Positions 1,006-62,611 of a DNA stretch of 64,000 nt are shown one piece after another. Each line of letters starts with the position of its first letter. Positions within the stretch are counted from its first letter, which is position 1. The notes below the pieces were generated by a model. That model was not told the DNA's origin and ran no database searches. It saw only the letters and a list, made by a program, of their open reading frames with translations. The position numbers and the translations under genes were made by a program. Source of the DNA: an uncultured Gammaproteobacteria bacterium (lineage in GTDB: Bacteria > Patescibacteriota > Patescibacteriia > Magasanikbacterales > JBBTQS01); assembly GCA_965230935.1 (NCBI GenBank), contig OZ246400.1:246359-310358 (forward strand). The letters are read 5' to 3'.

Positions 1006-1049
1006 ATGTGGTCGCTTTCAAAGACGTGCACAGCTTTCGTGCATCAGTT

Positions 1050-1074
1050 CCTGGGGAGTGTAACATTCCCCAGG
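1050..1074 (+). promoter_or_regulatory. 5' leader stem-loop of cassette A
   Basis: perfect 8-bp inverted repeat CCTGGGGA-N9-TCCCCAGG between promoter and RBS. Confidence 0.5.
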
Positions 1075-1111
1075 GATTGGTGTATGAGAGAATCCTTGGA
1101 AGGGGGAAGTA

Positions 1112-1516
1112 ATGAAACAGCGTCAGGAAAACATCGACAGATTGCTCGCCCGAGTGGTGCATGGGATCTACCCGCACCTCCTCATTGTATGGGTCGAGCC
1201 GAGCGAGCTCCTGGCGCACTCTCGTGCCGGATCGTTTCGCCTAGAAAGCAAAGTGCCGCTGCAATATCGCGCACTGACCGACCGCCGTACGTACGCGCTG
1301 CATTTTGCTCGACACTACCAGGTATGTGAGCAAAACACATGGCGCCCGATCAAGCTCTTTGTGACGTGCGAGGCGCGGATCAAAGATGTGAGCGATGCGA
1401 TGGCCAAACATTTGTTGCACTTGGCACAAACGGCCGCACGCACACAGCCCCGGGGCCGCCTACTGCATTTGCACGATGCCGAGCGGCGCTTTCGTCGAAT
1501 GAACACCCAACACTAA
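1112..1516 (+). CDS. GC-rich orphan protein A (134 aa, unknown function)
   Basis: ORF with strong SD GGAAGGGGGAAG 4 nt upstream of ATG; high-GC codon usage (CTG/GCC/CGC) unlike flanking genes; own promoter and terminator. Confidence 0.7.
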   Translation: MKQRQENIDRLLARVVHGIYPHLLIVWVEPSELLAHSRAGSFRLESKVPLQYRALTDRRTYALHFARHYQVCEQNTWRPIKLFVTCEARIKDVSDAMAKHLLHLAQTAARTQPRGRLLHLHDAERRFRRMNTQH

Positions 1517-1533
1517 CCAACAGAAACAACGAA

Positions 1534-1558
1534 CATCTCAGCCTAGCTGAGATGTTTT
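1534..1558 (+). terminator. intrinsic terminator of cassette A
   Basis: 9-bp stem CATCTCAGC-cta-GCTGAGATG followed by TTTT. Confidence 0.75.
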
Positions 1559-1566
1559 CAATTATC

Positions 1567-1595
1567 TTGACAAATACTATTCTTTGACCTATACT
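1567..1595 (+). promoter_or_regulatory. sigma70-like promoter of cassette B
   Basis: TTGACA (1567-1572), 17-nt spacer, TATACT (1590-1595). Confidence 0.6.
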
Positions 1596-1602
1596 CATCT
1601 CT

Positions 1603-1651
1603 TATATGCAGTGACCAGGAGACGAACCATCGCCTCCTTCTACTGCATATA
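1603..1651 (+). promoter_or_regulatory. structured 5' leader of cassette B
   Basis: 10-bp stem TATATGCAGT...ACTGCATATA enclosing a nested AGGAG...CTCCT stem; a second small CCGC/GCGG stem lies before the SD. Confidence 0.5.
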
Positions 1652-1684
1652 GACCCGCACCGCGGGAAAGGAGCACATCGGCCT

Positions 1685-3109
1685 GTGGCTGATACTCAAC
1701 AGGGTCCCCGCGCTAACGCGCACAACCAGCAGGGCTTTACCCTGCTGCAGGCGATCGCCTATCTGATCGCTCCCGCAGGTGTACTCGCACTGGTGGCAGC
1801 AGGAACAGTGTGGATTGACCTGCCGTTTGTCAGCGAACGCTTCCAGTTCAGGAGCAAGTGGGAGAACTGGATGTTGTCTCAAGTGGTGTTCGGCATGACG
1901 ATGTTGGCGGGCTTTGCACGAGTGCGGCTCCGCCGATACTCAATGATCCACATGGCGATCCTCGGACTGATCATCGTTGTGGGCGTGCGCATCGGCATAA
2001 CCGACATCATGAAGTCCGCGTACTTCGCGCCGCTGGACAATCGTGTCGATTGGCACACCCAACACATCTTCCAGGAAGAAATCAAGGCGCGGTATAGCTT
2101 TGGTTCGGCTGAGCGATCAAAGAGGAACTACCCCCGCTTCACCGAGGAGGAGTGCACGTTCGAGCAGGCCAAGATCGATGACCCGCGGTATTACGAGAGC
2201 GCCTACCGCGAACTTGAGCAGGAGCGACAAGGATACGTGGGCGCAATCAAGGAGCTTCAGGAGGATGTGCAGCGTGGCAAACAGTTGCGCCTTCACCTAC
2301 GGTTGGAATCTTTAGTCTTCCCTACCGTTGCCATCGTTCGCTTGGATCCTAACGCCCGCGTGAGCGCGCGTTACCTGGACAATGGCGTGTGCAGACTCCG
2401 TACAGATCAAGAGGTTGATAAGGTGGGGTTCAGCATGAACCTTGACCCAAAGGACGGCTGGGGTTTTCTGCTTGTGCGTATCGTACGTGCGCTGAACAAC
2501 ACACAGAGTCGAACCGGGATCAGGTGTAACATCAACCAGCTACAAGACCCGATTCGAGAAGTTGGTTGTTTCACCGCAATGACTGAGTACCTTGTCTATG
2601 GTGTGCTCGCAAGAAGGATCCTTCCCTATACCGGCCGGGAATTCGGGAACATAAAAGACTCCCTCAACTGGGACTTCCTGATCCAGGCCTGGAAGGCTGC
2701 TGATGTGATCGCCCAGGATGAGGGGCTGCTATGGGCCGTCATGACAAGCTTTGTGCAGCACCAACTCCCTCGGCTTGATGACCTGGGTCAGGGTCGACTG
2801 GCAGGCTTGCTGTGGGTTCTCTGGCACAAGAGCCACCGAAACCTGGCTGCACTTGCCACAAACACGTTCCTTGAGGCTCGCATACCCACCTCGGTTGAGG
2901 CTTGGTTCATGCGCCGATGGGCCGATGCCGGTCGGCAGGCTCCTGGGATGCGGCAGCTCTGGATCTACCGCTACTGGTTGCTTCGGGCCGGCGAGACGTT
3001 CAAGGTTCCGCAAAAGCTGCTGACGCAGTGGAACCAGGAGCTCAAGCCGGCGATCGGAGGCGCGACCACGCTCAAGCTCAAGGGGCTCTACCTGAAGGAC
3101 CTCAAGTAG
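1685..3109 (+). CDS. GC-rich membrane-anchored protein B (474 aa); paralog of protein C
   Basis: GTG start preceded by AAGGAG with slightly long spacing, so start uncertain; 3 predicted N-terminal TM helices; C-terminal EAWFMRRWADAG...LWIYRYW...GGATTLKLKGLY block shared with ORF 3368-4678. Confidence 0.7.
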   Translation: MADTQQGPRANAHNQQGFTLLQAIAYLIAPAGVLALVAAGTVWIDLPFVSERFQFRSKWENWMLSQVVFGMTMLAGFARVRLRRYSMIHMAILGLIIVVGVRIGITDIMKSAYFAPLDNRVDWHTQHIFQEEIKARYSFGSAERSKRNYPRFTEEECTFEQAKIDDPRYYESAYRELEQERQGYVGAIKELQEDVQRGKQLRLHLRLESLVFPTVAIVRLDPNARVSARYLDNGVCRLRTDQEVDKVGFSMNLDPKDGWGFLLVRIVRALNNTQSRTGIRCNINQLQDPIREVGCFTAMTEYLVYGVLARRILPYTGREFGNIKDSLNWDFLIQAWKAADVIAQDEGLLWAVMTSFVQHQLPRLDDLGQGRLAGLLWVLWHKSHRNLAALATNTFLEARIPTSVEAWFMRRWADAGRQAPGMRQLWIYRYWLLRAGETFKVPQKLLTQWNQELKPAIGGATTLKLKGLYLKDLK

Positions 3110-3145
3110 CGCTCGGAGGCTCAACAACACACAAACAACTACACG

Positions 3146-3169
3146 ATCTAGGATTTCCACATCCTAGAT
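3146..3169 (+). terminator. terminator-like hairpin after cassette B
   Basis: perfect 9-bp inverted repeat ATCTAGGAT-ttccac-ATCCTAGAT; weak T tract. Confidence 0.45.
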
Positions 3170-3199
3170 TCTGTAATTTAGCTAATTTTAGACTCATAC

Positions 3200-3228
3200 T
3201 TGACAAATTCCTCTAATTTTGGTATTGT
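3200..3228 (+). promoter_or_regulatory. sigma70-like promoter of cassette C
   Basis: TTGACA (3200-3205), 17-nt spacer, TATTGT (3223-3228); leader of about 135 nt follows. Confidence 0.55.
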
Positions 3229-3367
3229 TAGTCGTCCAAACCTGGACTCAGGATGCGAGTGTAGCAGCTCGTTTCTGTGACAGTTTTGGAACCTGGGCAC
3301 AAGAAGTGTTCATTGTTTTCCATGAGGGAATTGACAATTAGCTCAGACAGCCACGAGGAGGCAACAC

Positions 3368-4678
3368 ATGAGCGATACGACGAGCGGGGATACCCCCGAG
3401 ATGGTTACCATCCCGTGCACCGAGTGCCGTGCGGACGTGAACATCAGCAAAGAGAGAGCAGCACTGGCCGGCATGATCGGTTGCACCGACTGCGGCAAGG
3501 AGTTCATGTACTCCGGGCCCAGCAGCGAAACCGAGGACTCGGGCCCGCTGGAGCTCCCAAGCCAGGCGAAGCGGCTCAACCCGTTCGTCATCATCGGCCT
3601 CTCGACCATCCTGCTGGTGTCTCTGCTCATCTGGCACCAGTCCACGTCGGGCGACGCCGATCAGGAGGCCGAGAGTACGGCCCCGAGCGCGGTGACGGAG
3701 GACACCCCTGCGGCGGCCGAAGAGGACGAGTCGAATACCTGCACCGACGAGGATGGGTGTGGGGGTGGGAAGCGCTGCTTGAACGGCAAGTGCCAGCTGA
3801 TGGTCAACCACGACTGGGAGTCGGTCAAGGCCATCAACGGCCAAATCGCCAACCCGGTTGCCACCGCGACAGCGTCGACGCCGGTCTTCCCCAAGGACAG
3901 CGAAGACGTTCCGGAGTTCGACGGTTCGGCGACCATGTTGTTGGCCGCGGCGCTCTCCAAGCTCAACCACGACGACATGTGGCCGTATTGGTTGCTCAAG
4001 TGGGGCACGTTCGAGAAGGCCGATGATGCCGATGAGGACGCAGATGGGGTTTACATCTCCCTCGTCGATTCGGTTCTCACCGTCAAGTGGCTTCCGGAGA
4101 TGAGCAGTCCGTCGTGGAAGGGGCCGAGCGACACGCCCGAGTTCACCTACGGCGATCACCTGGTCATCGCGCTTCGGAAGATCGCCGAGGACGAGGAGCA
4201 GTTGGCCGCGCTCATGCCGTGGGCGCTGGGCTACGCCAAGGTTCACCTGCGGCCGCAGTTCTACCCCATGTACCAGGAGTGGCTGCGTCGGCTCTGGCAA
4301 GCGTCCAACACCAACCTCGCCCTGGTCAAGCATCAGGTGCAGAACGGCATCGGCGACCCGGAGGATGACGAGTACACCCGTCCGGGCGACGTGCTGTACG
4401 ACAACGACCTGAAGTTGGAGGGGTGGTTCATGCGCCGCTGGAGCAACGCCGGGGGCGGCAAGGCAGGGAGCGATCGGATCCTGCTGTACCGCTACTGGAT
4501 CGTCAAGGTCATGCAGATGCTCGAGGGCGGCTGCAGTCCGGCCGGGGACACACCCGCGTGTTCCGAGGAGTTGCTGGGATGGGCCAGCGCCGTTCAAGGT
4601 TCGTTCCAGAACGGTGAGGGCGCCACCCTGAAGCACAAGGGGACCTACTTCAGCCAGATCGACACGTTCTGGCCCTGA
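3368..4678 (+). CDS. GC-rich protein C (436 aa): N-terminal Cys4 zinc ribbon, single TM, acidic linker, C-terminal domain paralogous to protein B
   Basis: SD GAGGAGG 6 nt upstream of ATG; CTEC...CTDCG zinc-ribbon-like motif then TM helix FVIIGLSTILLVSLLIW; C-terminal EGWFMRRWSNAG...LLYRYW...GEGATLKHKGTY. Confidence 0.75.
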   Translation: MSDTTSGDTPEMVTIPCTECRADVNISKERAALAGMIGCTDCGKEFMYSGPSSETEDSGPLELPSQAKRLNPFVIIGLSTILLVSLLIWHQSTSGDADQEAESTAPSAVTEDTPAAAEEDESNTCTDEDGCGGGKRCLNGKCQLMVNHDWESVKAINGQIANPVATATASTPVFPKDSEDVPEFDGSATMLLAAALSKLNHDDMWPYWLLKWGTFEKADDADEDADGVYISLVDSVLTVKWLPEMSSPSWKGPSDTPEFTYGDHLVIALRKIAEDEEQLAALMPWALGYAKVHLRPQFYPMYQEWLRRLWQASNTNLALVKHQVQNGIGDPEDDEYTRPGDVLYDNDLKLEGWFMRRWSNAGGGKAGSDRILLYRYWIVKVMQMLEGGCSPAGDTPACSEELLGWASAVQGSFQNGEGATLKHKGTYFSQIDTFWP

Positions 4679-4730
4679 GGTCGGCTCCGACGGCTCCTGA
4701 GCACACACCACAACACAACAACTACTTGCA

Positions 4731-4759
4731 GGCCCGCAGCGCGTACAGCGATGCGGGCC
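4731..4759 (+). terminator. intrinsic terminator of cassette C
   Basis: 8-bp stem GGCCCGCA-N13-TGCGGGCC followed by a T-rich tract. Confidence 0.65.
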
Positions 4760-4794
4760 TCAGTAATTTTAGCTAGTAATCGCCTACCATTCTT

Positions 4795-16823: not shown

Positions 16824-17897
16824 TTAGGTAATAACTCCTCCGCCCAAACACTCGGTCTTGTTATACAATACTGCATACTGTCCCGGAGTGACCCCCCATT
16901 GCTTATCAACAAAAACAATTATAATACCTTCTCCATTTGCCGCATATGTAATTTCAGCAGTAACAAGTGACTGTCGGTGACGCAATCGAACAAAGCATGA
17001 AAGAGGCAATGAAGGTTCTTTACCGCTAATCCAATGCATATCTTTCACCGTAACAGTATCATCAAACAACAATGCGCTTTCTTTGCGCACTACAATGAGC
17101 TGATTCTTTTCCCAATTCTTTTTCGCAACATAAAGCGGGTCACCCCCACCAGGTTGCGTAAACCCATGCCGTTGCCCACGCGTGTACAATGGCAACCCAT
17201 CATGCCTGCCAATGACGTTTCCATCTTCTGCCACTACATTTCCTGGCGTGCAGCCCACCCTTCCCTTTAAAAACTCACGCATAGGAACTTCTCCAACAAA
17301 ACAAATCCCCATACTCTCCGGCATATCCTCAGTTCCTAATCCTCGCTCTTGTGCCATGTGTTTCACTTGCGTTTTAGTGTATTTGCACAATGGAAAAAAC
17401 GCTTTACTCAATTGATCTTGATTAAGTTGATGGAGAAAATACGTTTGATCTTTATTCTCATCCTTTGCACGCAATAAATGATATCCGTCTTTATCCTGAG
17501 ATACACCAGCATAGTGTCCGGTGGCCACTGCATCACACCCCAATCGCTCTGCGGCACGCAAAAAATAACCAAACTTAATAAATTGATTACATAACACATC
17601 AGGATTTGGTGTGTTCCCCTGTGCATACTGCTTAAGCATGGACTGATACACATGCTCGCGATACTGTTTTTCAAAATCAAAAAAATGCAGTGCGATACCG
17701 AGTTTAGCTGCAACACGCTGCGCACTCCGATGATCGGCACGCCAGGCACATACACCATACTGATCTTTTTCATCTGACCAGTTTTTCATAAAGCCCCCCA
17801 CTACTTCATACCCTTGCTCAACCAAAAGTGCCGCAGCGACTGATGAGTCAACACCACCACTAATGCCAACTAATATTTTTCGAGACTTTTTGACCAT
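16824..17897 (-). CDS. mnmA: tRNA-specific 2-thiouridylase
   Basis: ILVGISGGVDSSVAA PP-loop, MnmA length and motifs. Confidence 0.9.
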   Translation of the reverse strand: MVKKSRKILVGISGGVDSSVAAALLVEQGYEVVGGFMKNWSDEKDQYGVCAWRADHRSAQRVAAKLGIALHFFDFEKQYREHVYQSMLKQYAQGNTPNPDVLCNQFIKFGYFLRAAERLGCDAVATGHYAGVSQDKDGYHLLRAKDENKDQTYFLHQLNQDQLSKAFFPLCKYTKTQVKHMAQERGLGTEDMPESMGICFVGEVPMREFLKGRVGCTPGNVVAEDGNVIGRHDGLPLYTRGQRHGFTQPGGGDPLYVAKKNWEKNQLIVVRKESALLFDDTVTVKDMHWISGKEPSLPLSCFVRLRHRQSLVTAEITYAANGEGIIIVFVDKQWGVTPGQYAVLYNKTECLGGGVIT

Positions 17898-17981
17898 AGG
17901 GTACTAGTGTGTCGCAACAGAGTCTGTCTGTCAATACAAAAGAGCCTTTTCAGGCTCTTTTGCACCTTTGTAAGTAATACA

Positions 17982-20900
17982 TTATTCAGCAACAAACCCC
18001 GTTGGGAACTTAATCATCTCTTCACGGTCTACAATCTGAGACCCGAGCACAAAGGTAAGTGCTGCTGGAGAAACATCTCGATACAACTCTGGAATAGCAT
18101 TTGCCTCAATAGCTGCATCATTTGCAAACATTCGCCACATACCACCTTCAACAAAGTAGGTTTGATCATCTTGAATTACTACTGCTCCATTTGGATATCG
18201 CACTGTGTCAATCACCTCGCCTAGATCATAATTCACAAACATAGCATCAGAAACATCAATTACACGATCTGCCCAATCATCTCCATATAACGCAGTTGCC
18301 AACTCTTCAGTTTTGATCCAGTGCAGCTTTGATCCGGTACCAATAGCATACGTCGCCTCTACTGTAGTGAGTTTAATCAATTTAGTCCCGGGACGTACTG
18401 TCATATTTGCACCAAGAGTGATTGCAGACATTACATCTTGCGACACAGTCCGAACTCCTGAGAAATCATCGCCATACCATGTGGCATACACTGATTGACT
18501 TGGGAATGCATGACGTTTTCCATCAACGCCGTAGTAATACACGGTATCAACATCAGCGGTTTTAATCAGATCTGCACGGGATAACTCAGCGACCTCTTGT
18601 ACAACTTCGACAGGGGCACCTGGAGCCGGTGTAGACGTGCCAGGATCTACCGGTTCATTTGCTGGTGGCTCAGATGGTGGGATAACAAGCAAATCACTTG
18701 CCAACTCAATCGTATCGGAGACAACTACAGAGGTGAACCCGCCCGAATTGGCGAACTTAGCATATACGGTCTTTACCCCATCACCTTCAGATAAGGTAAA
18801 GCTTTTACTAGATACATACGGCTCCCAAACACTATTGGCAAATGTTGGATCTTCACTCACTAACATTTCAGACGCACCACTCACACCCAATGACAATGTC
18901 ACGGTTTGCGTTGTGGTTATTTCATTTCCTTGATCAATACTAATTGATGGATCTTGCGGATAGTTTGGTGATGATTGGGTGTCATCGCCGCTCAAAGCAA
19001 CACTCTTAAGCGCAAGAGTTGCGCTTCCGGTATCAGTACCATCCTCATTATCAGTATACGCAATACTCAATGTTTCAGCGCCACTTACCTCTAAAATACT
19101 GTTTGACGCAATCGCATTACTGGTGTTATCCACAATAATTGATCCGGTAAATGTCTCTGAGACCACCGTTGTCTCTGTTAATGTCACGGTTTCACTATCA
19201 CCAAGCTGTGAAGTCACCGTAACAGTAACCGTTTCCGCTGAAGCGGCGTCTAAATTTTCATCTTGATCAACCACTCGGAAATACAGTGTCATACCATCCT
19301 CTAGTGTTGTCGAGATAATTGTGTTTTGTCCACTATCAGTGGCATTGACCCCCTCTTGCCCTTTCAAAATAACCGATGAACCACCTTGGGTGATCTCACC
19401 AGTATTGGTGATATCACCAGTCACGGTCAGATTGTTATTGTTTACATTAATAGTACTATTAACATTACTCACACTTAAGGCACCTTCAACCGTAACATTG
19501 GATTGTAATGTGTAAGTAGTACTTCCGTTTACCGTCAAATTTCCAAACGGTCCTCCAGTCACGTTAGTTGCAGAACCACCTGAAAGGATTACAGTTGAAT
19601 CCTCAGCAAAATCATGATTACCATCTCCGGCAAATATCGCACTAGTCCCATCAACAGTGAGGGTTGATCCTGAATTAAGTTGGAACAGACTGCCAGTTCC
19701 TATAGTCAATGAGCTGATAGTTAAACTATCGTCCGTTAACAATTCAGCATCATCACTATCAATATCCACAGCACCAAGATCCAAAGATCCGGAAGAAACA
19801 GTAATCGTTGAAGTTGAACTTCCATCAAATGTATATGCACCTGATCCATGAGTTACCGTCCCACCTGCTTGAGTAAAGCTACCGGCATGGTTGATTGCTG
19901 ACGTACCCCATTGAAGTGTTCCATTTGATGAAACCGTCACCAGACCTTCAATGTCGGCAGCATTGTTATTTGTTGAAAGATCAAGCGTGCTTGAGGTAAT
20001 AGTAACGGCGCCATTAACATCAAGGGTTGTTGTGTCAGCAGCAATCACAATTCCACCAGTGTTATTGATGGTCATATTTTGAAAAGCGGCAGTACTTGAA
20101 ACTGTCTGTGCCGCGCTTGTCCCATCAAAGGTTAAGGTTCCTGAACCCGGTGTAACCACACCTGCACCATTTTGTGTAAGGTTTCCAGCCATAGTAACGG
20201 CGCCCGAACCCCACGCAAGTGCTGCATTGGCATTGTCTGCAACACTAATCGCACCATCAGCATTAAGTACAGCATTATTTGTTGATAGATCGAGCGTACT
20301 TGATGTAATTGTAAGTGTGCCACCTACTGTAAGCGTTTGCCCAGATGCTACAATCACATTTCCAGCGGTTTTGTTAATGGTCAGTCCACCTTCAAGAGAT
20401 TGGTTATCAAAATCAATAGTTTGATTCCCGGCTGTTTGATCACCATCTAAGGTAAGTGTGGCTGAACCCGAGGACATAGTTGCTGAGTCATTTACCGTAA
20501 TATTCCCGGAAACAGTGATCGCTCCACTTCCCCATTGCATAGTAGCTTCCGCAGCATCAGCCAAAGTTAAACTTCCACCAGCACCACCCTCTTGGAGATC
20601 CATTGCCGCATTATTGGTCTCAAGGTTAAGATTGCCTAGTGTGATGGTGAACGTACCAGCGATAGTTAAATTACCACTCACAGTAAGATCATCGCTCGTG
20701 CCGCCGCCAGAATTATTTAATGTCATTGGGCCATATACCTCTCCAGCGCCCCCGGTAGTAAATTCTTGATCAGCAGCTCCATCAAATGTAATTTGTGGAC
20801 AATGCCCTTCTCCACAATCAAAAAATGTTCCACTGTTCACCGCAAAATCACCCGCAGCAGTAACTGTGGCTGCAAGCTGTAGTGTGCCAGAATCTAAATC

Positions 20901-39882: not shown

Positions 39883-40641
39883 CTAATGATGGTGATGGTG
39901 ATGAGTAGCTCCTTCGCCGTAAAGTGCTGCCAAATTCTTGTCTTTCATCACTTGCTGCGGCGCACCAGAACACAACAGCCGTTGATTCACACACAGCACA
40001 AGGTCGGCATACTTATGAACGACTTCCATTTCATGCGACACAACTAAAATGGTCACGTCATATCGTTGTCGAATACGATCAATGTGTTCGTAAATAGATT
40101 TGGAACCAACCGTATCGATATTACTTACCGGCTCATCAAGCACCAAGAGTTTTGGTTTTCCCAAAAGCGCTCTGGCAATCAGTACGCGTTGCAATTGCCC
40201 ACCTGACAATGCGGACAGTGCCGAGCTGCCATGGTCTTCCATGGCAACTTCAGCAAGTGCTCGCTTCATCGTACGCCCAGATTTACCTGCGCTGGTGAGT
40301 GATAAAAATTCATTTACGGTAATTGGAAAATCCGAGTCAACAAAAAACCGCTGTGGTACATAGCCGATTTGTTCACGAATTTGTTTTGGTTTTTTACCAA
40401 AAATTCTAATCGTACCATCATCTACTGGCATAATACCCATGATAGCTCGCACCAATGTGGTCTTACCACTCCCATTAGGGCCAACGAGCATGGTGATACT
40501 TTTTCGTGGAACCTCAAAAGAGATGTTTTGCAACACCTCTCGAGAGTCAATGCGCACACTTACATTGTTTACCGCAATGACATTGTCTTTTGTTTTGACG
40601 GCTTCTGCCATGTGAATATGACTACTCAAGTGCTTCAACAA
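39883..40641 (-). CDS. metal ABC transporter ATP-binding protein (ZnuC-like) with C-terminal hexahistidine
   Basis: Walker A GPNGSGKTT, signature LSGGQLQRV; ends GEGATHHHHHH. Confidence 0.85.
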   Translation of the reverse strand: MLKHLSSHIHMAEAVKTKDNVIAVNNVSVRIDSREVLQNISFEVPRKSITMLVGPNGSGKTTLVRAIMGIMPVDDGTIRIFGKKPKQIREQIGYVPQRFFVDSDFPITVNEFLSLTSAGKSGRTMKRALAEVAMEDHGSSALSALSGGQLQRVLIARALLGKPKLLVLDEPVSNIDTVGSKSIYEHIDRIRQRYDVTILVVSHEMEVVHKYADLVLCVNQRLLCSGAPQQVMKDKNLAALYGEGATHHHHHH

Positions 40642-41581
40642 CAGTATTCACATTATACCGCATCATGTCAATGTAGGATACTCGGTCGGCGACTCCACCA
40701 AGAGGATCAAGCATTACCACCGGCAATCCAGTGTCAGAAGAAAAGGACGCGATAGCGGCATCGGAAAGCTGCGCTTCGCTCCAAATCATCTGTACCGGCT
40801 CATCACTATGCTCAATTGCCTCAAGCAACTCATGTAAATATTGTGGTGTTGGCTCTTCACCTGCTGCCGGTTCAAATACGCCTACAATCTCCAAATCAAA
40901 ACTATCAGCAAAATACCCCCATGCATCATGTAACGTAATCACATGCGTATCTTCATATGGTGCAATCACCTTTGTAAGTTCTTCTTGGGTTCTATCGAGT
41001 GTTGTGCGGTATGTCGTAGCACGCTGTTGGTATTGTGCAGCATGTGCCGGATCAAGTCCTGCTAAGGTATTGGCCGCTGTCTGAGCCATCTTGCTAGCAT
41101 TATCAAACGCAAGCCAATAATGTGGGTCAATTCCCTCATGGCCATGGCCATCGTCATCTTCGTCAGCCTCATCATGGCCATGTTCGTCTTCTTCGGCAAA
41201 TTCACGTAACGTAACCCCATCGTCAACTACAATAACGTTGATACCAGGAATATTTTCTTGAACAGACAACACCCAATGATCAATCCCATGACCAATGGCA
41301 AAAATCGTTCTCACGTCTTGGAGTTCTCGAATTTGTTTGGGTGAAAACGAAAACAGGTGTGGACTTGCACCGCTTGGTAGAATCTGTACAACATCAGCGG
41401 TATCACCTGCAACTTGGGATACGATATCGGCAAGGGGAGCAATCGTTGCCGCAACAGTTATTTTTCCATCAGGGATGCTCGCAGTGGTATGATCTTCTTG
41501 TAGCTCACTGGCGACATACCATAACCCGGCTGCGCCAAAAATAATCACGAGAACGCTTACAACTAACAGTGTTTTTTTCAT
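40622..41581 (-). CDS. metal-binding lipoprotein (ZnuA-like)
   Basis: signal peptide; His/Asp/Glu-rich loop EEDEHGHDEADEDDDGHGHEG typical of Zn-specific cluster A-I SBPs. Confidence 0.85.
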   Translation of the reverse strand: MKKTLLVVSVLVIIFGAAGLWYVASELQEDHTTASIPDGKITVAATIAPLADIVSQVAGDTADVVQILPSGASPHLFSFSPKQIRELQDVRTIFAIGHGIDHWVLSVQENIPGINVIVVDDGVTLREFAEEDEHGHDEADEDDDGHGHEGIDPHYWLAFDNASKMAQTAANTLAGLDPAHAAQYQQRATTYRTTLDRTQEELTKVIAPYEDTHVITLHDAWGYFADSFDLEIVGVFEPAAGEEPTPQYLHELLEAIEHSDEPVQMIWSEAQLSDAAIASFSSDTGLPVVMLDPLGGVADRVSYIDMMRYNVNTVVEALE

Positions 41582-46452: not shown

Positions 46453-47667
46453 CTAAGCAGACGGGCGTTTCAGCCAGGTCCAAGGAACGGTAAATCGGCG
46501 ACTCTCACGCCAGATATACCCTTCCTCTTGTGCTCGGGAGATATATGCACGAATCGAATCAGTTGAAATTCCACCACCAAATGATTCTGGGGTCAGATGA
46601 TGATGATAGAAGTCACGGCCGCCGGTGGAATCCCAAAGATGAACCAGTCGGTCAGACCAAGGCATCTCGAGCCGGGTTACCTGTGGTGGAGATGGGGCCT
46701 TCAACCAGTAGCACGCATTCGGATGGTTCTCAGCGCACCGGATGTACCCTTCCTTGCGTGCACGGCCCAGGTACGATTTAAGAGTGCCTTTAGAAACGCC
46801 ACCACCGAACGATTCGGCGCTGATCTCATCTCGAGAAAAGTCACTTCCACCGGTAGACTTCCAAAAGTAAAAAAGCCGCAATTCCCAAGGAATTTTTTGC
46901 TTATTCACTCTACTGCGATGTCGATTTGGTTCTTCACCACGCACACTACTATCAGCAGTTGCACCAACGTTCGTAGGCCTAGATGAAGGTTTCTGACCGT
47001 ACGGGTGTTCGCCTATCAAGGCAAAACCAGAGACCGAGATGCTATACCAATCACCCTCAAGACAAGCGCCGGTCAAGCGGTCTTCGTCGCAGCGAGACAA
47101 CAACATGTGATCCAACAGCATATCCATTACATCACCGATCTGCTCAAAGCCCAGTTTACCGAGCTTATCATCAGTAGCGGTTCTACGAATTGCCTGCCGA
47201 ACCAAGTCTTCCGGGAACGTCGGAATCTCGTTTAGATGGTATCCTGTCTGCTCGAAGATGTGGTGCAACACACGACGTAGTGCTTCATCAATCTGCAGCG
47301 AAGTACTCACATCGCCATCATAGCAAACACCAGGACGGTACGGTTCCCCTTCCCGGAACCACCCAACGTGACTCCTCCCGATCATGTCAAAAGCCGATGC
47401 CGTCATCTGAAGACGACGGTTCCTTCTTCCCTTGTACCCCACACTACCACGTGTGAGCAAGAAACGCTCTTCCATCACCGCAACCAACTGGGCACGACTC
47501 TTCACACCTAACTGTCTTTGCAGTTGTGTAGGCAGCGCTTCGCGAATCCATTTCTTAAGCTGCGCTTGTGTGAATGTGCGACGAACGCCTCTCCGGTATC
47601 CTGTTTTGCGAAAAAGCGCTTTGACCACTTCACGAAGAAGGTCGTACTGCGCCTGATTTCTCTGCAT
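46453..47667 (-). CDS. GC-rich protein F (about 405 aa) with internal tandem roughly 65-aa repeat
   Basis: start placed at MQRNQAQ (ATG 47665-47667) because of the strong SD AGGGGGGAG; repeats WELRLFYFWKSTGGSDF...ESFGGGVS...EGYI and WSDRLVHLWDSTGGRDF...ESFGGGIS...EGYI. Confidence 0.7.
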   Translation of the reverse strand: MQRNQAQYDLLREVVKALFRKTGYRRGVRRTFTQAQLKKWIREALPTQLQRQLGVKSRAQLVAVMEERFLLTRGSVGYKGRRNRRLQMTASAFDMIGRSHVGWFREGEPYRPGVCYDGDVSTSLQIDEALRRVLHHIFEQTGYHLNEIPTFPEDLVRQAIRRTATDDKLGKLGFEQIGDVMDMLLDHMLLSRCDEDRLTGACLEGDWYSISVSGFALIGEHPYGQKPSSRPTNVGATADSSVRGEEPNRHRSRVNKQKIPWELRLFYFWKSTGGSDFSRDEISAESFGGGVSKGTLKSYLGRARKEGYIRCAENHPNACYWLKAPSPPQVTRLEMPWSDRLVHLWDSTGGRDFYHHHLTPESFGGGISTDSIRAYISRAQEEGYIWRESRRFTVPWTWLKRPSA

Positions 47668-47809
47668 TTTGATCTCCCCCCTAAGGGTCTTGTGTTGATG
47701 AAATTGACCAATTAGCTGAGTATAGTTAATCATTTTATATTATTTTGTCAAGAATAAATTAAGACAAATATAAAATTTACATATCCTTTTACTCCGTGTA
47801 CACTAAATT

Positions 47810-49940: not shown

Positions 49941-51179
49941 TTACGTGGCTTGAGTATACCACAGATGATAGGTATCTGCCATGGAATCCCAAGAAAAATC
50001 CTGCTGAACCTTTTGTAATGCATGTTGGATATATTGTTGACGCTTTTGCGGATGCTGAATCAAATCATCAAGTGCGTTTGTGAGTGCACTGATCGAACCA
50101 GGCGCAACCAATACCCCGGATTTACCATGATCCATCACTGTTGCGACTCCCGGTAAATCACTCGCAACACAAAATACTTGCGCTGCCATCGCTTCTAAAA
50201 GCACCAAACCAAAGGCTTCTCCCCTACCAATTGAGGGCAATACAAAGATGTCCGCTGCCCAAAACCACTGTGGCAACTCTTGATAATCAACTGCCCCAAC
50301 AAAATGAATGCGACTGTCAAACGAAGTGGTAAGTCGCTCATACACCGACCGTCTATCTCCATCTCCTACAATAATAAGTTGTGCCGGGCTTTTTACTTTG
50401 CTCCACGCTTGAATCAAGATATCCACACCTTTAAACGCATGAGCAGTATCTAACCCACCAACAAATAAAACCGTGGGTAACTGTGGATCTAAGCCATGCT
50501 GACGATAAAATTCATCTGCAACCGGTTGTCGTAAAAACCGATCGACATCTACACCAAATGGCGCTTCAACCACTTTTGCATTATTTGCTTTGAACCACTC
50601 CCCATTAGTATGCGCCTGTGCATATTCTTTGGTACTCACAAATACAGTATCAGCAGCGCTTAATATTTTTTGTGTATGGTGATGGGCATACCACCGCGCA
50701 TACAGACCACGCAATCCTGGAAGGTCCGGGTCCATGTGATAGGTCACAAAAAATCTTTTGCTTGGGTATTGCTTGCGCCATTTTGGCAACAGCTCTGCAG
50801 TAAAATAAAACGGATAATGTAAATGGACAATATCAGCATCTTGGAGCTGATCTGCTATTTTGATCCGCGCTGAATTACCATAATGAAAAGATGACCTGAT
50901 GCGATGAGTGATATATGTTTGCTCCGCTTCTTTTTGCACCGCAGACTCCGCCGTATTGCCGACAGTCGCCTTACCCGGCTGTGGCGACTGGAGGGAATTG
51001 GGCGGAGTCGGTGATGGAGAATACGCAGGAGCAAACACCTCAACATCATACCCACGCTTGGCCATCTGCTCAGCATGGCGTTTGGCAACATACCCAATAC
51101 CACCATGGTACGGTGGAAACACCGGAGTAATAATCGCCAAGCGTGGCATATTATTTGCTATTCTTTTTACGATACTCAC
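49941..51179 (-). CDS. family 4 (GT1-type) glycosyltransferase
   Basis: 412 aa; GT-B fold motifs (EAFGLVLLEAMA). Confidence 0.8.
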   Translation of the reverse strand: MSIVKRIANNMPRLAIITPVFPPYHGGIGYVAKRHAEQMAKRGYDVEVFAPAYSPSPTPPNSLQSPQPGKATVGNTAESAVQKEAEQTYITHRIRSSFHYGNSARIKIADQLQDADIVHLHYPFYFTAELLPKWRKQYPSKRFFVTYHMDPDLPGLRGLYARWYAHHHTQKILSAADTVFVSTKEYAQAHTNGEWFKANNAKVVEAPFGVDVDRFLRQPVADEFYRQHGLDPQLPTVLFVGGLDTAHAFKGVDILIQAWSKVKSPAQLIIVGDGDRRSVYERLTTSFDSRIHFVGAVDYQELPQWFWAADIFVLPSIGRGEAFGLVLLEAMAAQVFCVASDLPGVATVMDHGKSGVLVAPGSISALTNALDDLIQHPQKRQQYIQHALQKVQQDFSWDSMADTYHLWYTQAT

Positions 51180-51492
51180 TCAGTGCCTCATCGCGCACTG
51201 AGGAAGTGAGATGATCTTCCAATTTTTCAAGCCGGACAAAAATTTTGAAAATAAGGTAAAAAATAACGAGAATGGAAATATACGTTGCGGTGTCTACCCC
51301 CCGACCCACACCAATAACTTCGGCAATACGATCAAGCCACTCAGGCTGCAGAGCAAATGCAATCACTGATGCCCATATCACTACTGCTAATGATCCTAAT
51401 GCATGAGACAACTCCCGTTTGCGTACCCGGACAAACACTCGCGTGAGTGCAAACAGGGCAAAGAGAATAAAAATTACTTGAACAACTACCAT
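51151..51492 (-). CDS. small membrane protein (DUF2304-like) associated with GT2 genes
   Basis: 113 aa, 3 TM; the pairing with a downstream GT2 is typical of this family. Confidence 0.5.
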   Translation of the reverse strand: MVVVQVIFILFALFALTRVFVRVRKRELSHALGSLAVVIWASVIAFALQPEWLDRIAEVIGVGRGVDTATYISILVIFYLIFKIFVRLEKLEDHLTSSVRDEALSEYRKKNSK

Positions 51493-51495
51493 AGA

Positions 51496-52170
51496 TTACA
51501 AAAATTTACGTAAGGCAATCTTTGCTACCGTACGAAATCCACCTCCAAGACTTTGCCCCTTACTTAATGAATATTCAGTATATACCGGTTTAATGGGCAC
51601 TTCTTGGATATTCAAATTCAGGCGATGGACTTCACGTACAAACTCAGACGACACATCCATATGATTAGCACTGATGTGCAAGCGCCCCAACGTGTCTCGC
51701 GAAAATGCACGCAATCCTGATTGACTATCGCTCACCCATGCACCATGAAATACCCATGTAACAACATTTCCAATCCAGTTAAACACCCGCCGAGTCCATG
51801 GCATTTGTCCACTTTGTAAAAATCGGGAACCGATCACCATATCGACACTGTTCTCAATAATAGGCGCAGCAACGCGTGCAACATCTTGAGAATCATGTTG
51901 TCCATCAGCATCATATGTCACCACCACTTGTGCACCGAGCTCATGGGCAAGGGTGAGTCCGGTTTTAAGCGCTGCTCCTAATCCACGATTGATACGATGA
52001 TGCACTACATGCACGCCACACTCTTGTGCAATGGCACCAGTTGCATCTGCAGAACCATCGTTAACCACAATCACGCGCGATGGACTCACGCGTTGGGTAA
52101 GTTGCGCCAACACTGCTCCGATAACTGGAGCTTCGTTGTACGCTGGCATAACGACATACACCTGCTCCAT
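51496..52170 (-). CDS. family 2 glycosyltransferase
   Basis: start placed at MEQVYVVMPAYNEAP...VIVVNDGSAD. Confidence 0.8.
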   Translation of the reverse strand: MEQVYVVMPAYNEAPVIGAVLAQLTQRVSPSRVIVVNDGSADATGAIAQECGVHVVHHRINRGLGAALKTGLTLAHELGAQVVVTYDADGQHDSQDVARVAAPIIENSVDMVIGSRFLQSGQMPWTRRVFNWIGNVVTWVFHGAWVSDSQSGLRAFSRDTLGRLHISANHMDVSSEFVREVHRLNLNIQEVPIKPVYTEYSLSKGQSLGGGFRTVAKIALRKFL

Positions 52171-52180
52171 ACTCCGTAAT

Positions 52181-53194
52181 TTATAACCCGAGAATTTGCT
52201 TGTGGGCAATCGTATAATCAATAGTCTTAGTCAATCCGTCCTCAAGACGTACGAGTGGCAACCAACCAAGTCGCTCTTTGGCCTTAACCGTATTTGGCAT
52301 TGCGAGTGGCGACATAAATGGCAAAGGATCCTCATGTGTAATGGTTGAGGTAGAGCTGGTCTTAGCAATAATCATCTGCGCAACATCAACAATGACGTGA
52401 GACTCTGATCCACCAAAGTTTACCGGCCCCAATCCCGGACCTGACTTCATGAGCTTGGTCATGCCGTCCACAGCATCAGTAACATACATAAGTGAGGTAG
52501 TAAAACTATCATCTCCATATACCACCATATCCTTGCCCTCGAGCGCATCAACGATAAAATCAGGAATCATTTGACCATCAAATAACTTCATGCGTGGGCC
52601 GTATGTACGGAAAATTCGAGCGATTTTAACATCAATGCCATGTACTTGCTCGTATGTCGCTACACAAGTTTCTCCAAATCGCTTACCTTCATCATAACAT
52701 CCACGAGGAGATAAGTGATTCATGGTTCCTTCATGACTTTCTTCAAATGCATTCCCATCAGCTGGGCGCGGACCATACACTACCGATGAACTTGCATACA
52801 AAAACTTGGCTTTATACCGTACGGCAAGATCAAGCGCATTGATCACGCCAATGCTGTTGCTCTGCAAGGTGTTCATCTTTAAATCATCAAAATTCTTGGC
52901 ACTGGTTGGACACGCAAGGTGATAGATCTCCTGCACTCCTTGAAATTGCACTTTGAATTTCTCAAGCTCTGGAAACCTCTCTAAATCAAGCGGTTGATTA
53001 ATGTCATGCTTAATAAATTCAAAATTCTCAAATTGCATCAGGTGCTCGATGTTCTTGGCAGTACTGTTGGATAAATCGTCCAAACAGATCACTTTTGCGT
53101 CTTTAAGCAACTTTTCACATAAATGCGAACCGATAAACCCGGCACCACCGGTAACGAGCACATTTTTTTGTTCAAAAATAGGAGTTTCTGACAT
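52181..53194 (-). CDS. UDP-glucuronate decarboxylase (UDP-xylose synthase-like SDR)
   Basis: VLVTGGAGFIGSHL, YxxxK, UXS-like length. Confidence 0.8.
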   Translation of the reverse strand: MSETPIFEQKNVLVTGGAGFIGSHLCEKLLKDAKVICLDDLSNSTAKNIEHLMQFENFEFIKHDINQPLDLERFPELEKFKVQFQGVQEIYHLACPTSAKNFDDLKMNTLQSNSIGVINALDLAVRYKAKFLYASSSVVYGPRPADGNAFEESHEGTMNHLSPRGCYDEGKRFGETCVATYEQVHGIDVKIARIFRTYGPRMKLFDGQMIPDFIVDALEGKDMVVYGDDSFTTSLMYVTDAVDGMTKLMKSGPGLGPVNFGGSESHVIVDVAQMIIAKTSSTSTITHEDPLPFMSPLAMPNTVKAKERLGWLPLVRLEDGLTKTIDYTIAHKQILGL

Positions 53195-53256
53195 ACAATT
53201 GATAGTTGAAATCTAGGCGTATTGTACAGGAAATCGCCCACATATAGCAAGAAATA

Positions 53257-53285
53257 TTGACAGAAACTCAATTACTTACTACAAT
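53257..53285 (+). promoter_or_regulatory. sigma70-like promoter of cassette G
   Basis: TTGACA (53257-53262), 17-nt spacer, TACAAT (53280-53285). Confidence 0.6.
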
Positions 53286-53343
53286 ACCTTTCCATTGAAG
53301 GAAACAACACCAACCTCTAGTAGCGAAAGCTAAGGAGTCTGAC

Positions 53344-54021
53344 GTGCACACCAATCCGATCCTAACCGCTGCCTTGCTGATCGTGGCATTGACGTTGGCC
53401 GGGTGCGGCGGCCCGGAGCAGCTCGTCAACACCGGGCAGACGCATTTGATCCGCACCGGGACGGAGGACGCCGAACATCATCCCGCCTGCATCGACCTGC
53501 CGTTGCAAGTCAAGCAGGGTGAGCACATCACGCTGAAGCACGTCCCCGAGACGTCACAACAGCACGCGGTGTGCTATGTCGGCGATTGGGATGAGTTGTT
53601 TGGACGAAGCACCAGTGTGCTGATTAATCCTGCGCGGTATTGGCCGACCATCATTGACCTGAACCTGTGGTGGGACAAGGTGATGAAGGGTCAGAGCAAG
53701 CCGCAGCAGGGCTCTACCGAGAACCTCACCTACTGGTACGTCTTCGACAAGGGAGCCGTGTACAACGGCAGCATTCTCACGATCTGTACCAAGGACGTTC
53801 GAGAAAACCTCAAAAAAGGCGGCCACGCGTCGGTAGGATGGGGAGTCCAAATGACAACTGGAATGTCGGAGTTTTTCCTGCATGTTGTGAAGACGCTCAT
53901 CGAAAGTGGAACACTCGGATCTGATGCCACCATCGACCCGCTGATGCCGATCCCAGCGGCACTGGATGGCCTTGGTAAGGATCCGCGATTCTGCTCGCAG
54001 GTCTTGATCAAGCACAACTAA
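53344..54021 (+). CDS. GC-rich predicted lipoprotein G (225 aa, unknown function)
   Basis: GTG start after SD AAGGAG; signal peptide with lipobox LTLAGC; GC-rich codons. Confidence 0.7.
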   Translation: MHTNPILTAALLIVALTLAGCGGPEQLVNTGQTHLIRTGTEDAEHHPACIDLPLQVKQGEHITLKHVPETSQQHAVCYVGDWDELFGRSTSVLINPARYWPTIIDLNLWWDKVMKGQSKPQQGSTENLTYWYVFDKGAVYNGSILTICTKDVRENLKKGGHASVGWGVQMTTGMSEFFLHVVKTLIESGTLGSDATIDPLMPIPAALDGLGKDPRFCSQVLIKHN

Positions 54022-54037
54022 CAACTTACAACCACAA

Positions 54038-54071
54038 CGACCTGCACGTAATGCGGGTCGTTTGTATTTTT
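54038..54071 (+). terminator. intrinsic terminator of cassette G
   Basis: CGACCTGC-acgtaat-GCGGGTCG stem (one G-U pair) followed by TTTGTATTTTT. Confidence 0.65.
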
Positions 54072-54088
54072 AATTGTAATGGCTATTC

Positions 54089-60323: not shown

Positions 60324-60352
60324 CTTGACAAATTTTCGTATTCATGGTAGGC
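60324..60352 (+). promoter_or_regulatory. sigma70-like promoter of cassette I
   Basis: TTGACA (60324-60329), 17-nt spacer, TAGGCT (weak -10). Confidence 0.45.
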
Positions 60353-60373
60353 TTACGCCACGTTCTTTGATTT

Positions 60374-60389
60374 TTGGCCCTCTAGGGCC
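60374..60389 (+). promoter_or_regulatory. perfect palindrome in the cassette I leader (candidate operator or RNA hairpin)
   Basis: TGGCCCT-ct-AGGGCCA between the promoter and the SD. Confidence 0.45.
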
Positions 60390-60413
60390 ACCACTTTTTG
60401 CCTTGGAGGCGCT

Positions 60414-61214
60414 ATGAAGCACCCGAGACAGTTGAGCAGGTTCGCTCTTTGGCTGAACATTGCCAGGCAGGCGTACCAGCGTTGGAATCACCGCCGTGCG
60501 GTGGTTCCAGCCCAGATGGGCTACCCGGACTCGTACCAGGAGCCCAAGGCCATCGAGGATCAGCTCCACATCCTGCGCCAGTACTTCCCCGAGCTGGGCG
60601 TTGCCCGGTTGGCGGACGCGCGCCAGGTGCTCCCTGAGGGCGCCGAGGGGTGGTTTGCCATCCCGAAGTGGCAGGCGCTGGGCGACACCTACTGTGAGGC
60701 GTTGCACCGCGTGTTTGCGGCGCTGCGCCAGAGCCGCTATGTGGAGGATCTGCTCAACCAGTTTGGGCCGGTCACGGATCTGCAGCTGCAGACCACCGAG
60801 CACACCCGCGACGCGATGAACTACATCGCCGCGGAGCAGGACCGCCGGACGTTCGAGGGGAACATCCTCATGATCCCCTGCCAGTTCGGCGCGAACCACG
60901 CGGGCGAGTCGGATCTTCGCGTGCGCGCCACGTTGCGCCACGACGAGTTCGCGCTCTCCACCTTCGCGGTGGCGTGCATGGTGTTGACCCACCCGGATCG
61001 GTTTGTCAGCGATGGCACCCTGGGTGTGCACTGCACCGGTGACGGCTTCAGCCAGATCACGCAGGACCACCGCGAGTTCCACGGCTTCTGCGACACGCCC
61101 TGCTTCTTCTTCGACCGCGGGAGCGACGGGCACGACAAGCTGTGGCTCAGCAGCGACCTGGTGCGGATCCCGCGATACCACACCGGGGCGGCCACCGGGT
61201 TCATAGTCGAGTAA
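60414..61214 (+). CDS. GC-rich orphan protein I (266 aa, unknown function)
   Basis: SD GGAGG 5 nt upstream of ATG; Cys/His-rich C-terminal half (HCTGDGF...HGFCDTPCFFFD). Confidence 0.7.
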   Translation: MKHPRQLSRFALWLNIARQAYQRWNHRRAVVPAQMGYPDSYQEPKAIEDQLHILRQYFPELGVARLADARQVLPEGAEGWFAIPKWQALGDTYCEALHRVFAALRQSRYVEDLLNQFGPVTDLQLQTTEHTRDAMNYIAAEQDRRTFEGNILMIPCQFGANHAGESDLRVRATLRHDEFALSTFAVACMVLTHPDRFVSDGTLGVHCTGDGFSQITQDHREFHGFCDTPCFFFDRGSDGHDKLWLSSDLVRIPRYHTGAATGFIVE

Positions 61215-61271
61215 CGCGTCGAGGCGCGGCCGACAACCCACCAGACATAAACCAATTCAAACAACCACTTC

Positions 61272-61310
61272 CCCGCCAAGGCGCACGCTGAGGCGGGTTA
61301 GTGTTTTTTC
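61272..61310 (+). terminator. hairpin after cassette I
   Basis: CCCGCC-N15-GGCGGG followed by TTAGTGTTTTTTC. Confidence 0.45.
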
Positions 61311-62149
61311 TTGCGATTTTTGATAACTTTAATCTTTTTAGCAAAAGAGTTTGGATAGTCTGTGTAAATTCCGACACGATAATCACCATCGTCCGGACGT
61401 GCCCACTTTTTCTTAATCTCGCCTCCTGGATAATATGGCAACTTGCCAATGGCAAAAAAGACTTGTTGAGGGTTTGTGTATACAAGCTTACCCGCCAAAA
61501 GTGCATTACGGTCAATTTCAGAAAGTAAAAATAATGTTTGATAAATCGCAACGAGCACCGCTCCAGCAAGCACGTTCATAAGTACGCTTCCGTCTCGCAA
61601 TTCAAATAACAACATGGCGATAATGAGTGAAAGTACAATCAAAATAAACCAATGCGTACCAGATACCACTGGCTTTGCCGTAAGTGATAGCTCTTGGTGA
61701 GTTTGATAGAGTGACTTTTTCTCATTCACCAAGTACGGATGGAGATTTTTTGCAACGTCTGTTTTGGGCTTCAGTAAATCCATGGCACTGATAATGTCTT
61801 TGAGATCATCTTTGCCATAGTATTCCAAAAACTGATAATCGAGTGATGCAATCATAAACGCATCAATTGCATTGGCTACTTTTTTAGCGCCAGCGCGACT
61901 GATTTGTTTTGCAGTTTCATAAACCGCCATCAATGTTGCATTAAGCTCTGCGATTAAGGTTTGCATGCGTAGATAATTGGACGTCGTGGTTCCAATAAAA
62001 AATCCAATAAGGATAACAAAGAACAATGCCACCACCGTAAGGATGGTTGCCACATCAAAAGTAAAATCAAAAAGTTCGACAAAAAAAGGACTGACAAATA
62101 GCAGGAGTCCAAGTACAACGTTCAAAAAAATCTTAAGGTGCTTGTGCAT
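61298..62149 (-). CDS. hypothetical membrane protein
   Basis: 283 aa; N-terminal and C-terminal TM helices; no recognised motif. Confidence 0.55.
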   Translation of the reverse strand: MHKHLKIFLNVVLGLLLFVSPFFVELFDFTFDVATILTVVALFFVILIGFFIGTTTSNYLRMQTLIAELNATLMAVYETAKQISRAGAKKVANAIDAFMIASLDYQFLEYYGKDDLKDIISAMDLLKPKTDVAKNLHPYLVNEKKSLYQTHQELSLTAKPVVSGTHWFILIVLSLIIAMLLFELRDGSVLMNVLAGAVLVAIYQTLFLLSEIDRNALLAGKLVYTNPQQVFFAIGKLPYYPGGEIKKKWARPDDGDYRVGIYTDYPNSFAKKIKVIKNRKKKH

Positions 62150-62185
62150 AGGTATCGCAAGTATACCATAGCGATGGCGTGCGCT

Positions 62186-62611
62186 CTACAAACTTTTTAT
62201 AAATGCGTCAGCTGAGTCAAAATGTTTGTTGAAAATCAAATACAAAGTTTCGGTTTCTTTTTGTTCACCCACCACAATACATTCTTTGCCCATTCCATAT
62301 GCTGCTCCGGCCTCCATGTGTGATGACTTCCCTGCTGGCAACAACAGAACCAATTTTTCTGAATCGCGTAGTGCGTTCATGTCAGTATCAAACACCTCGC
62401 GCACATCTGGATCAGTGCGCCAATCCTGTACTGCTTCAAACTTGGCCATGGCCTCTTCTGGATTGCAATTGAGATCGCCAACATGATTTTTTGATGCATC
62501 GGTTTCTAAAAAACAATAGACCTTTTTGCCTTTTTCGCGCATTTTAGCAAGTAAATCTAAGACAATGTCTTTGTTACGAAATCGGGAGGCAAGAAAATAC
62601 TCGTATTGCAT
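62186..62611 (-). CDS. nucleoside 2-deoxyribosyltransferase-like protein
   Basis: 141 aa; LLLPAGKSSHMEAGAAYGMGKECIVV resembles the NDT/Rcl-family nucleoside-binding core. Confidence 0.45.
   Translation of the reverse strand: MQYEYFLASRFRNKDIVLDLLAKMREKGKKVYCFLETDASKNHVGDLNCNPEEAMAKFEAVQDWRTDPDVREVFDTDMNALRDSEKLVLLLPAGKSSHMEAGAAYGMGKECIVVGEQKETETLYLIFNKHFDSADAFIKSL

Follow-up and report, generated by a model that had tools for sequence, protein, structure and literature searches.

Inside a conserved envelope-biosynthesis cluster of a Patescibacteria (CPR) chromosome we found a foreign single-gene unit, cassette G, which codes for a predicted exported orphan protein and is represented in the ENA and NCBI annotations by a spurious antisense open reading frame (ORF) instead. 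Throughout the text, the window means the whole 64-kb stretch of DNA that was analyzed. We have high confidence that cassette G is real, autonomous, foreign and protein-coding. Its product, judged by the features of its amino acid sequence, is most likely an exported, membrane-tethered accessory protein. The overall explanation that we favor, with confidence slightly better than even, is a horizontally acquired ‘moron-like’ single-gene islet that would yield an exported, lipid-anchored accessory surface factor.

Chromosomal setting and architecture of cassette G

The window is natural chromosomal DNA of a Patescibacteria bacterium and was independently recovered by the ENA and Logan assemblies. 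The ENA contig ERZ930065 k127_33187, assembled with MEGAHIT from run ERR2281800, matches window positions 42181-63194 over 21 kb with a single mismatch, at 60787. A Logan contig from run ERR2281800 matches positions 50715-53667 exactly and thereby spans the left junction of cassette G. NCBI likewise has records of the products of cassettes D, F and H (see the last section) and of the antisense product at G, and the longest contig that carries them measures 931,061 bp. A synthetic or planted insert was considered and rejected, since the ENA and Logan contigs over the locus agree with the window. ENA and Logan contigs terminate within or at cassettes in three places, namely 53667 (inside G), 3830 (inside C) and 1114 (where A begins). 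Such ends may reflect strain-level presence/absence or coverage effects.

The genes around the cassette belong to the chromosomal core (fmt, rpsI/rplM, rpoA, infA, alaS, mnmA, secA, secDF, mur ligases, PBP and the CCA enzyme) and include a glycosyltransferase/epimerase cluster. The best relatives of the neighboring epimerase are found in Patescibacteria MAGs. No phage genes were detected among the window ORFs scanned, and the locus does not lie in a prophage; neither was there any recombinase or mobility gene among the window proteins scanned.

The comparison with syntenic relatives identifies cassette G as an addition. The three closest relatives (L004, L005 and L006), whose epimerases are 75%, 67% and 67% identical to that of the window, keep the same gene order as the window, UDPGdh-Epi301-p283-BacTransf-S8-Epi337-GT2-DUF2304-GT4-DoxX-Mur. 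However, the distance from the stop codon of the S8-peptidase gene to the start of the UDP-sugar epimerase gene is 894 bp in the window, whereas it amounts to 72 bp in L004 and to ~30-40 bp in both L005 and L006. We therefore consider ~822 bp of this spacer to be a lineage-specific insertion, and tblastn found no match to cassette G in any of these three relatives. The native sequences on either side, the S8 stop codon and the host epimerase promoter, have been kept. The latter (TTGCTA-18-TACAAT, 53221-53250, minus strand) lies outside the insertion, where it stands back-to-back with the promoter of the cassette, and the corresponding position of L004 also carries a TTGCTA-type promoter. Based on this retained promoter and on the spacers of the relatives, the added DNA can be placed at about 53251-54072 (plus strand), although both boundaries are inferred ones. 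It consists almost exactly of a promoter, a leader, an ORF, a spacer and a terminator, and its orientation opposes that of both neighboring genes. There are no direct or inverted repeats, attC-like sites or target-site duplications flanking cassette G.

An earlier note on this DNA had described an autonomous promoter-SD-ORF-terminator cassette, and at the level of sequence signals this description is supported. The sigma-70-type promoter TTGACA-17-TACAAT that it had named is present at 53257-53285 on the plus strand. The promoter agrees with the consensus at 11 of 12 positions and is the sole such match in the 64 kb (0.01 expected); the host infA gene carries a promoter of the same type. Transcription is predicted to start near 53292. 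The 58-nt leader (53286-53343) contains the Shine-Dalgarno sequence AAGGAG (53332-53337), located six nucleotides 5' of the GTG codon at 53344, from which translation probably starts. A small GAAA-loop hairpin can be drawn in the leader at 53315-53337, with CCUC pairing with GGAG of the Shine-Dalgarno sequence; statistically, it is not significant (z = -0.71). The ORF itself runs from this GTG to a TAA stop codon (53344-54021, plus strand) and, as previously proposed, encodes 225 aa. The stop codon is followed by a C/A-rich, G/T-poor spacer, CAACTTACAACCACAAC (54022-54038), of a kind common to all nine cassettes of the window, and by an intrinsic terminator (54036-54072) made of a hairpin (54036-54062) and a T-run extending to 54072. 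The terminator is strong (dG = -17.7 kcal/mol, z = -5.0). Its presence had been correctly noted, but not the length of its stem, which comprises 10-11 base pairs and not eight.

The ORF is also GC-rich, again in line with the earlier description: its GC content is 0.57 compared to 0.46 for the window. The difference is most pronounced at third codon positions, where GC content (GC3) reaches 0.74 and exceeds the mean of 50 host genes (0.39 ± 0.05) by about 6.7 SD. We considered whether such values could represent the GC3-rich codons of highly expressed native genes and rejected this possibility. The ribosomal protein genes have GC3 of only 0.28-0.38, and therefore the composition of G does not stem from expression-linked codon bias. 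The codon composition of cassette G is foreign.

Coding strand and the antisense annotation

Two properties of the DNA identify the plus-strand ORF as a real protein-coding one. GC content at codon positions 1/2/3 is 0.57/0.41/0.74, a period-3 pattern in which positions 3 and 2 differ with Fisher p = 2e-12. Moreover, 225 codons were not reached in any of 2000 dinucleotide shuffles of the segment, for which the longest ORF averaged 107 ± 28 codons, with a maximum of 223. Despite this, an exact look-up in a collection of ~15 billion proteins did not return the 225-aa protein. Its absence is explained by the annotators' choice of the opposite strand. What is on record from NCBI is the product of the antisense call (P0006).

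GC-rich DNA yields long ORFs in several frames, and two alternatives to the plus-strand gene have to be weighed against this background. According to one of them, the true gene is the antisense 109-aa ORF at 53554-53883 (minus strand), the choice of both public annotation pipelines, ENA and NCBI. We judge this ORF to be spurious and its being the true gene very improbable. Its length is about the chance mean for the segment (107 codons), it has neither a Shine-Dalgarno sequence nor a promoter, and its product forms a singleton cluster with no family on record. Every signal of the cassette (promoter, Shine-Dalgarno sequence, C/A-rich spacer and terminator) belongs to the plus strand. The same antisense frame can be extended to a 156-aa ORF with a TTG start (53554-54024, minus strand), and GC content at its codon positions 1/2/3, 0.68/0.41/0.54, is the mirror image of a GC3-rich sense gene, that is, the signature of the opposite strand. 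Cassettes I and C have likewise been given antisense calls. The other alternative, to which we attach just as little probability, takes the GC-rich segment for a non-coding RNA gene or an assembly chimera rather than a protein gene. Besides the general tendency of GC-rich DNA to produce long ORFs, an RNA gene would agree with the cassette having its own promoter and terminator. It would not agree with the strong period-3 pattern or with an ORF that spans exactly the distance between the Shine-Dalgarno sequence and the pre-terminator spacer, and Rfam has no match in cassette G. A chimera is contradicted by the ENA and Logan contigs over the locus, which show zero differences inside the cassette.

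The public antisense calls are located at 53554-53883 (minus strand) in G, 60342-61241 (minus strand) in I and 3338-3829 (minus strand) in C. As they replace the sense ORFs, the proteins of these three cassettes are missing from protein databases. The miscall at G is thus repeated in at least two sister cassettes, and compositionally foreign islets may be systematically missing from protein catalogues. If so, they would look more ‘orphan’ than they are.

The cassette G protein and its N-terminal signal

Homology searches with the G protein were negative throughout. Nothing was found in Pfam or in a PDB sequence search, in PHROGs or PADLOC, in a word-indexed search of 5.8 billion proteins or in a full phmmer scan of 1.84 billion representatives. 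Similarly, scans of contigs from genome, viral and metagenome collections, with confirmation by tblastn, yielded nothing, and there was no tblastn match among phage and plasmid records. The only matches, two weak and sub-threshold ones in NCBIfam, were to lipoprotein signal models. AlphaFold2 run without an alignment did not produce a fold for either the full-length protein or the mature domain (pLDDT of 36 and 37). We counted the absence of homologs and of a fold against our best explanation. No part of G is repeated within the window, and no template repeat of a diversity-generating retroelement (DGR), differing at adenines only, was found there for G.

The mature part would comprise 205 aa (22.7 kDa) with a pI of ~6, thus mildly acidic, and four further cysteines (positions 49, 77, 148 and 217), in keeping with an extracytoplasmic protein. 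It had been characterized as Trp/Tyr-rich. Tryptophan is indeed enriched (six residues, 2.9%), but tyrosine is not (five residues, 2.4%).

The N-terminus had been interpreted as that of a lipoprotein, and it does have the corresponding organization. A predicted signal peptide of 20 residues, MHTNPILTAALLIVALTLAG, is followed directly by Cys21 of the lipobox L-A-G-C (53344-53406, plus strand, including the Cys21 codon TGC at 53404-53406). The h-region, ILTAALLIVALTL, covers residues 6-18, where the hydropathy of 13-mers peaks at 2.78; the protein has no other hydrophobic segment. The L-A-G-C motif matches the core expression of PROSITE PS51257 ([LVI][ASTVI][GAS]C, with uncharged preceding residues), and the lipobox cysteine, at residue 21, lies after the hydrophobic h-region and within the required range of 15-35. 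On the other hand, the first seven residues, MHTNPIL, include neither Lys nor Arg. The sequence therefore falls outside the side rule of PS51257, and for the same n-region it also fails G+LPP-type patterns. Among window ORFs of at least 60 aa, G has the only convincing lipoprotein-type N-terminus. Lipidation of the G protein is plausible in view of this sequence.

No lgt or lspA gene is present within the 64-kb window, and tblastn searches with Lgt and LspA as queries matched only a non-CPR locus, in an amount of DNA far too small for such a search to be informative. The ZnuA-family solute-binding protein of the host (40622-41581, minus strand) starts with MKKTLLVVSVLVIIFGAAGLWYV, a hydrophobic anchor devoid of Cys or a lipobox. 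A Cys-free anchor on a solute-binding protein is unusual for a single-membrane bacterium, and its presence hints that the lineage may not rely on lipid anchoring. A literature search on CPR lipoproteins returned nothing specific. Among other CPR bacteria, Saccharibacteria are predicted to have signal peptides of the SPII type (PMC7427843).

In the moron-like islet explanation, a transcript from near 53292 would be translated from GTG 53344, and the 20-residue N-terminal signal would direct the protein through Sec. Lgt would then lipidate Cys21, LspA would cleave before it, and the 205-aa domain with its four cysteines and some enrichment in tryptophan would remain tethered at the outer face of the cell membrane. 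There, it might act as an accessory surface factor that either blocks the entry of phages or competitors or modulates contact with the host cell of the episymbiont. In CPR/Patescibacteria, which are episymbionts of ultra-small size and reduced genome, host-cell attachment and phage defence are believed to be controlled by surface proteins. A known parallel is provided by exclusion lipoproteins of mobile elements, such as T5 Llp, phi80/HK022 Cor, TP-J34 Ltp and F-plasmid TraT, and also by lambda Bor. These are small lipobox-bearing proteins that act at the surface and are encoded by autonomous units on horizontally moving DNA. G would share the small size, the lipobox and the autonomous unit on horizontally moving DNA with them, but it shows no similarity to them in sequence or fold. 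The role in surface exclusion or cell contact, proposed by analogy, is the most speculative step of the explanation, and we offer it as a guess. The candidate role as an interaction or immunity factor suggested in the earlier note is equally conjectural.

Two other fates of the gene product have to be considered. The protein might be exported and yet remain unlipidated, as a signal-anchor protein or a substrate of signal peptidase I, in a host that lacks Lgt/LspA or rarely uses them. We regard this as possible, if rather doubtful. It would be in keeping with the Cys-free start of the host ZnuA-type binding protein and with the absence of Lys and Arg from the n-region of G; besides, since the gene is foreign, its signal evolved in another organism. 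However, a lipobox L-A-G-C that follows a hydrophobic core of 13 residues at the canonical distance constitutes a specific pattern, the sole convincing one of its kind among the ORFs inspected, and the SPII-type predictions for Saccharibacteria (PMC7427843) concern bacteria of the same radiation. Alternatively, the cassette might be recently acquired passenger DNA, its intact ORF being functionless or unexpressed in this host. An orphan protein whose composition has not shifted towards that of the host would be expected in this case, and the contig ends at 53667, 3830 and 1114 could reflect a presence/absence polymorphism. What makes us consider it quite unlikely is the state of preservation: a near-consensus promoter of the host type, a well-spaced Shine-Dalgarno sequence, an intact ORF of 225 codons and a strong terminator are all in place, the promoter of the neighboring epimerase has been retained, and the same tidy format recurs in nine cassettes.

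The set of nine cassettes and comparison with known systems

Together with G, the window holds at least nine GC-rich units of the same build. Eight of them have promoters starting at 977, 1567, 3200, 31765, 53257, 57738 and 60325 on the plus strand and at 8661 on the minus strand, while the ninth, cassette F (46453-47733, minus strand), is less extreme. A perfect TTGACA -35 element is present in eight cassettes. Seven of these eight account for 7 of the 11 matches to TTGACA-N16-18-TANNNT in the window; the eighth, cassette H (57738), with its TATACC -10 element, falls outside this pattern. In all nine cassettes, the stop codon is separated from the terminator by a C/A-rich, G/T-poor tract such as CAACAACACACAAACAA, with C or A at no fewer than 15 of 17 nt. 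This level is reached by only 6 of 49 host genes (Fisher p = 5e-7) and by 8% of random windows. The units also differ from host genes in orientation. Seven of the nine are on the plus strand, compared to 7 of 49 host genes (Fisher p = 3e-4), the other 42 host genes being on the minus strand, and most cassettes therefore run in the direction opposite to that of their neighbors. Repeats, attC-like sites, duplications or recombinases flanking the nine units were not found. The motif GCTAATTTTAG is present upstream of cassettes C and E, at a count that does not exceed chance.

In contrast to the uniform build, the encoded proteins are mutually unrelated. The G protein is related to none of the others, and only the B and C proteins have something in common, their C-terminal domain. 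This shared domain of B (1685-3109) and C (3368-4678) is ~80 aa long (blastp E = 3e-9) and features the motif W-F-M-R-R-W ... Y-R-Y-W; at their N-termini, the two proteins have membrane or zinc-ribbon-like features. None of the nine proteins scored above the curated cut-off in Pfam, PHROGs or PADLOC, the F protein having a sub-threshold match to HTH_24 only. The F protein (46453-47733, minus strand) consists of 426 aa, has an internal duplication of ~75 aa and a weak winged-helix match, and the GC3 of its gene is only 0.49. Four cassette proteins could be found in the protein collection, each in a cluster of one or two sequences.

Relatives provide few counterparts to these units. When 67 loci of relatives were searched for the complete cassette architecture, almost no instances emerged, and cassettes H and I are absent from relatives at the corresponding positions. 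The slot of cassette F, between the CCA-enzyme gene and a Mur-ligase gene, is filled by different DNA in each relative. L004, a relative with 34% GC, has a small islet of its own at 17790-18220 (minus strand), between the CCA-enzyme and PBP genes. This islet has higher GC content and consists of the promoter TTGACT-17-TACAAT, a Shine-Dalgarno sequence, an ORF and a terminator; the same site is empty in the genome of the window.

Among known systems, cassette G may be compared with phage morons. A moron is defined as an addition that is absent from related genomes, has its own promoter and terminator and deviates in GC content (PMC3594210). Like HK97 gene 15 and lambda bor (PMC3594210), G is one extra gene at a place where the relatives have two genes side by side. 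As far as can be told from its sequence, it has its own sigma-70-type promoter and its own intrinsic terminator, and its GC content is unlike that of the surroundings (GC3 of 0.74 versus 0.39 ± 0.05). The product of such morons is an accessory envelope protein, which is also what we propose for G. Unlike phage morons, which reside in phages or prophages, G is located among cell-envelope genes of the core chromosome in a CPR bacterium, and it is one of at least nine cassettes within 64 kb with the TTGACA(A) -35 element, the 17-nt spacer and the C/A-rich tract in common. A literature search on CPR morons returned nothing specific.

Two further systems resemble the set rather than G itself. Integron gene cassettes are likewise discrete units with unrelated orphan ORFs, and part of the units described here are similarly arranged in tandem (A-B-C, 977-4790). 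However, integron cassettes have attC sites and an integrase, neither of which was seen here, and they are collected in one array, whereas the present units are scattered between genes, each with its own promoter and terminator. The other system is PeSL (promoter-early stem-loop), reportedly described by Arbiol et al. in 2010 as mobile regulatory cassettes of T4-type phages. In PeSLs, a terminator stem-loop lies directly beside a promoter around orphan genes, an arrangement also seen at the A/B, B/C and D junctions. The PeSLs, though, share their sequence and act by homologous recombination in phage genomes, while the hairpins found here all differ and belong to a bacterial chromosome.

The common format of the nine units raises a broader interpretation, in which G would be a product of an undescribed CPR route of gene acquisition that brings in foreign orphan ORFs as uniformly formatted, insulated units. 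The format would include the TTGACA(A) -35 element, the 17-nt spacer, a strong Shine-Dalgarno sequence, the C/A-rich tract and the terminator. The units would be placed in intergenic regions of the core chromosome, mostly opposite to host genes, and one cassette family would be common with a DGR-bearing phage. At present, we consider such a route unlikely, and we put it forward tentatively. If the shared format does reflect a common mechanism, reduced genomes would have a novel means of acquiring accessory functions. In our opinion, the cassette set and the annotation blind spot are of more interest than G alone.

The phage link mentioned above comes from cassette I (60325-61300). Its 266-aa protein belongs to a small unnamed family with six distant metagenomic homologs, one of them encoded on a terminase-bearing contig (L085, in the region 1855-3269). 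The gene of this homolog is GC-rich (0.62, with GC3 of 0.81) in surroundings of 37-45% GC, and it has a -10-like element upstream and a terminator downstream. The homolog is the variable protein of a DGR. All differences between its variable region (VR, 2606-2737) and the template repeat (TR, 3138-3269) fall on adenines of the template, and the adjacent genes encode bAvd and a reverse transcriptase. No DGR template repeat for cassette I was found within the window. The presence of an I homolog on the terminase-bearing contig indicates that one or more of the cassette families move within a gene pool associated with phages, and this fits the moron concept (PMC3594210). Adjacent to cassette I, at 61298-62611 (minus strand), there are two genes with host-like GC content, coding for a bestrophin-like protein of 283 aa and an uncharacterized protein of 141 aa. 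In the window, these two genes intervene between UDPGdh and Epi301, which are directly adjacent in the relatives.
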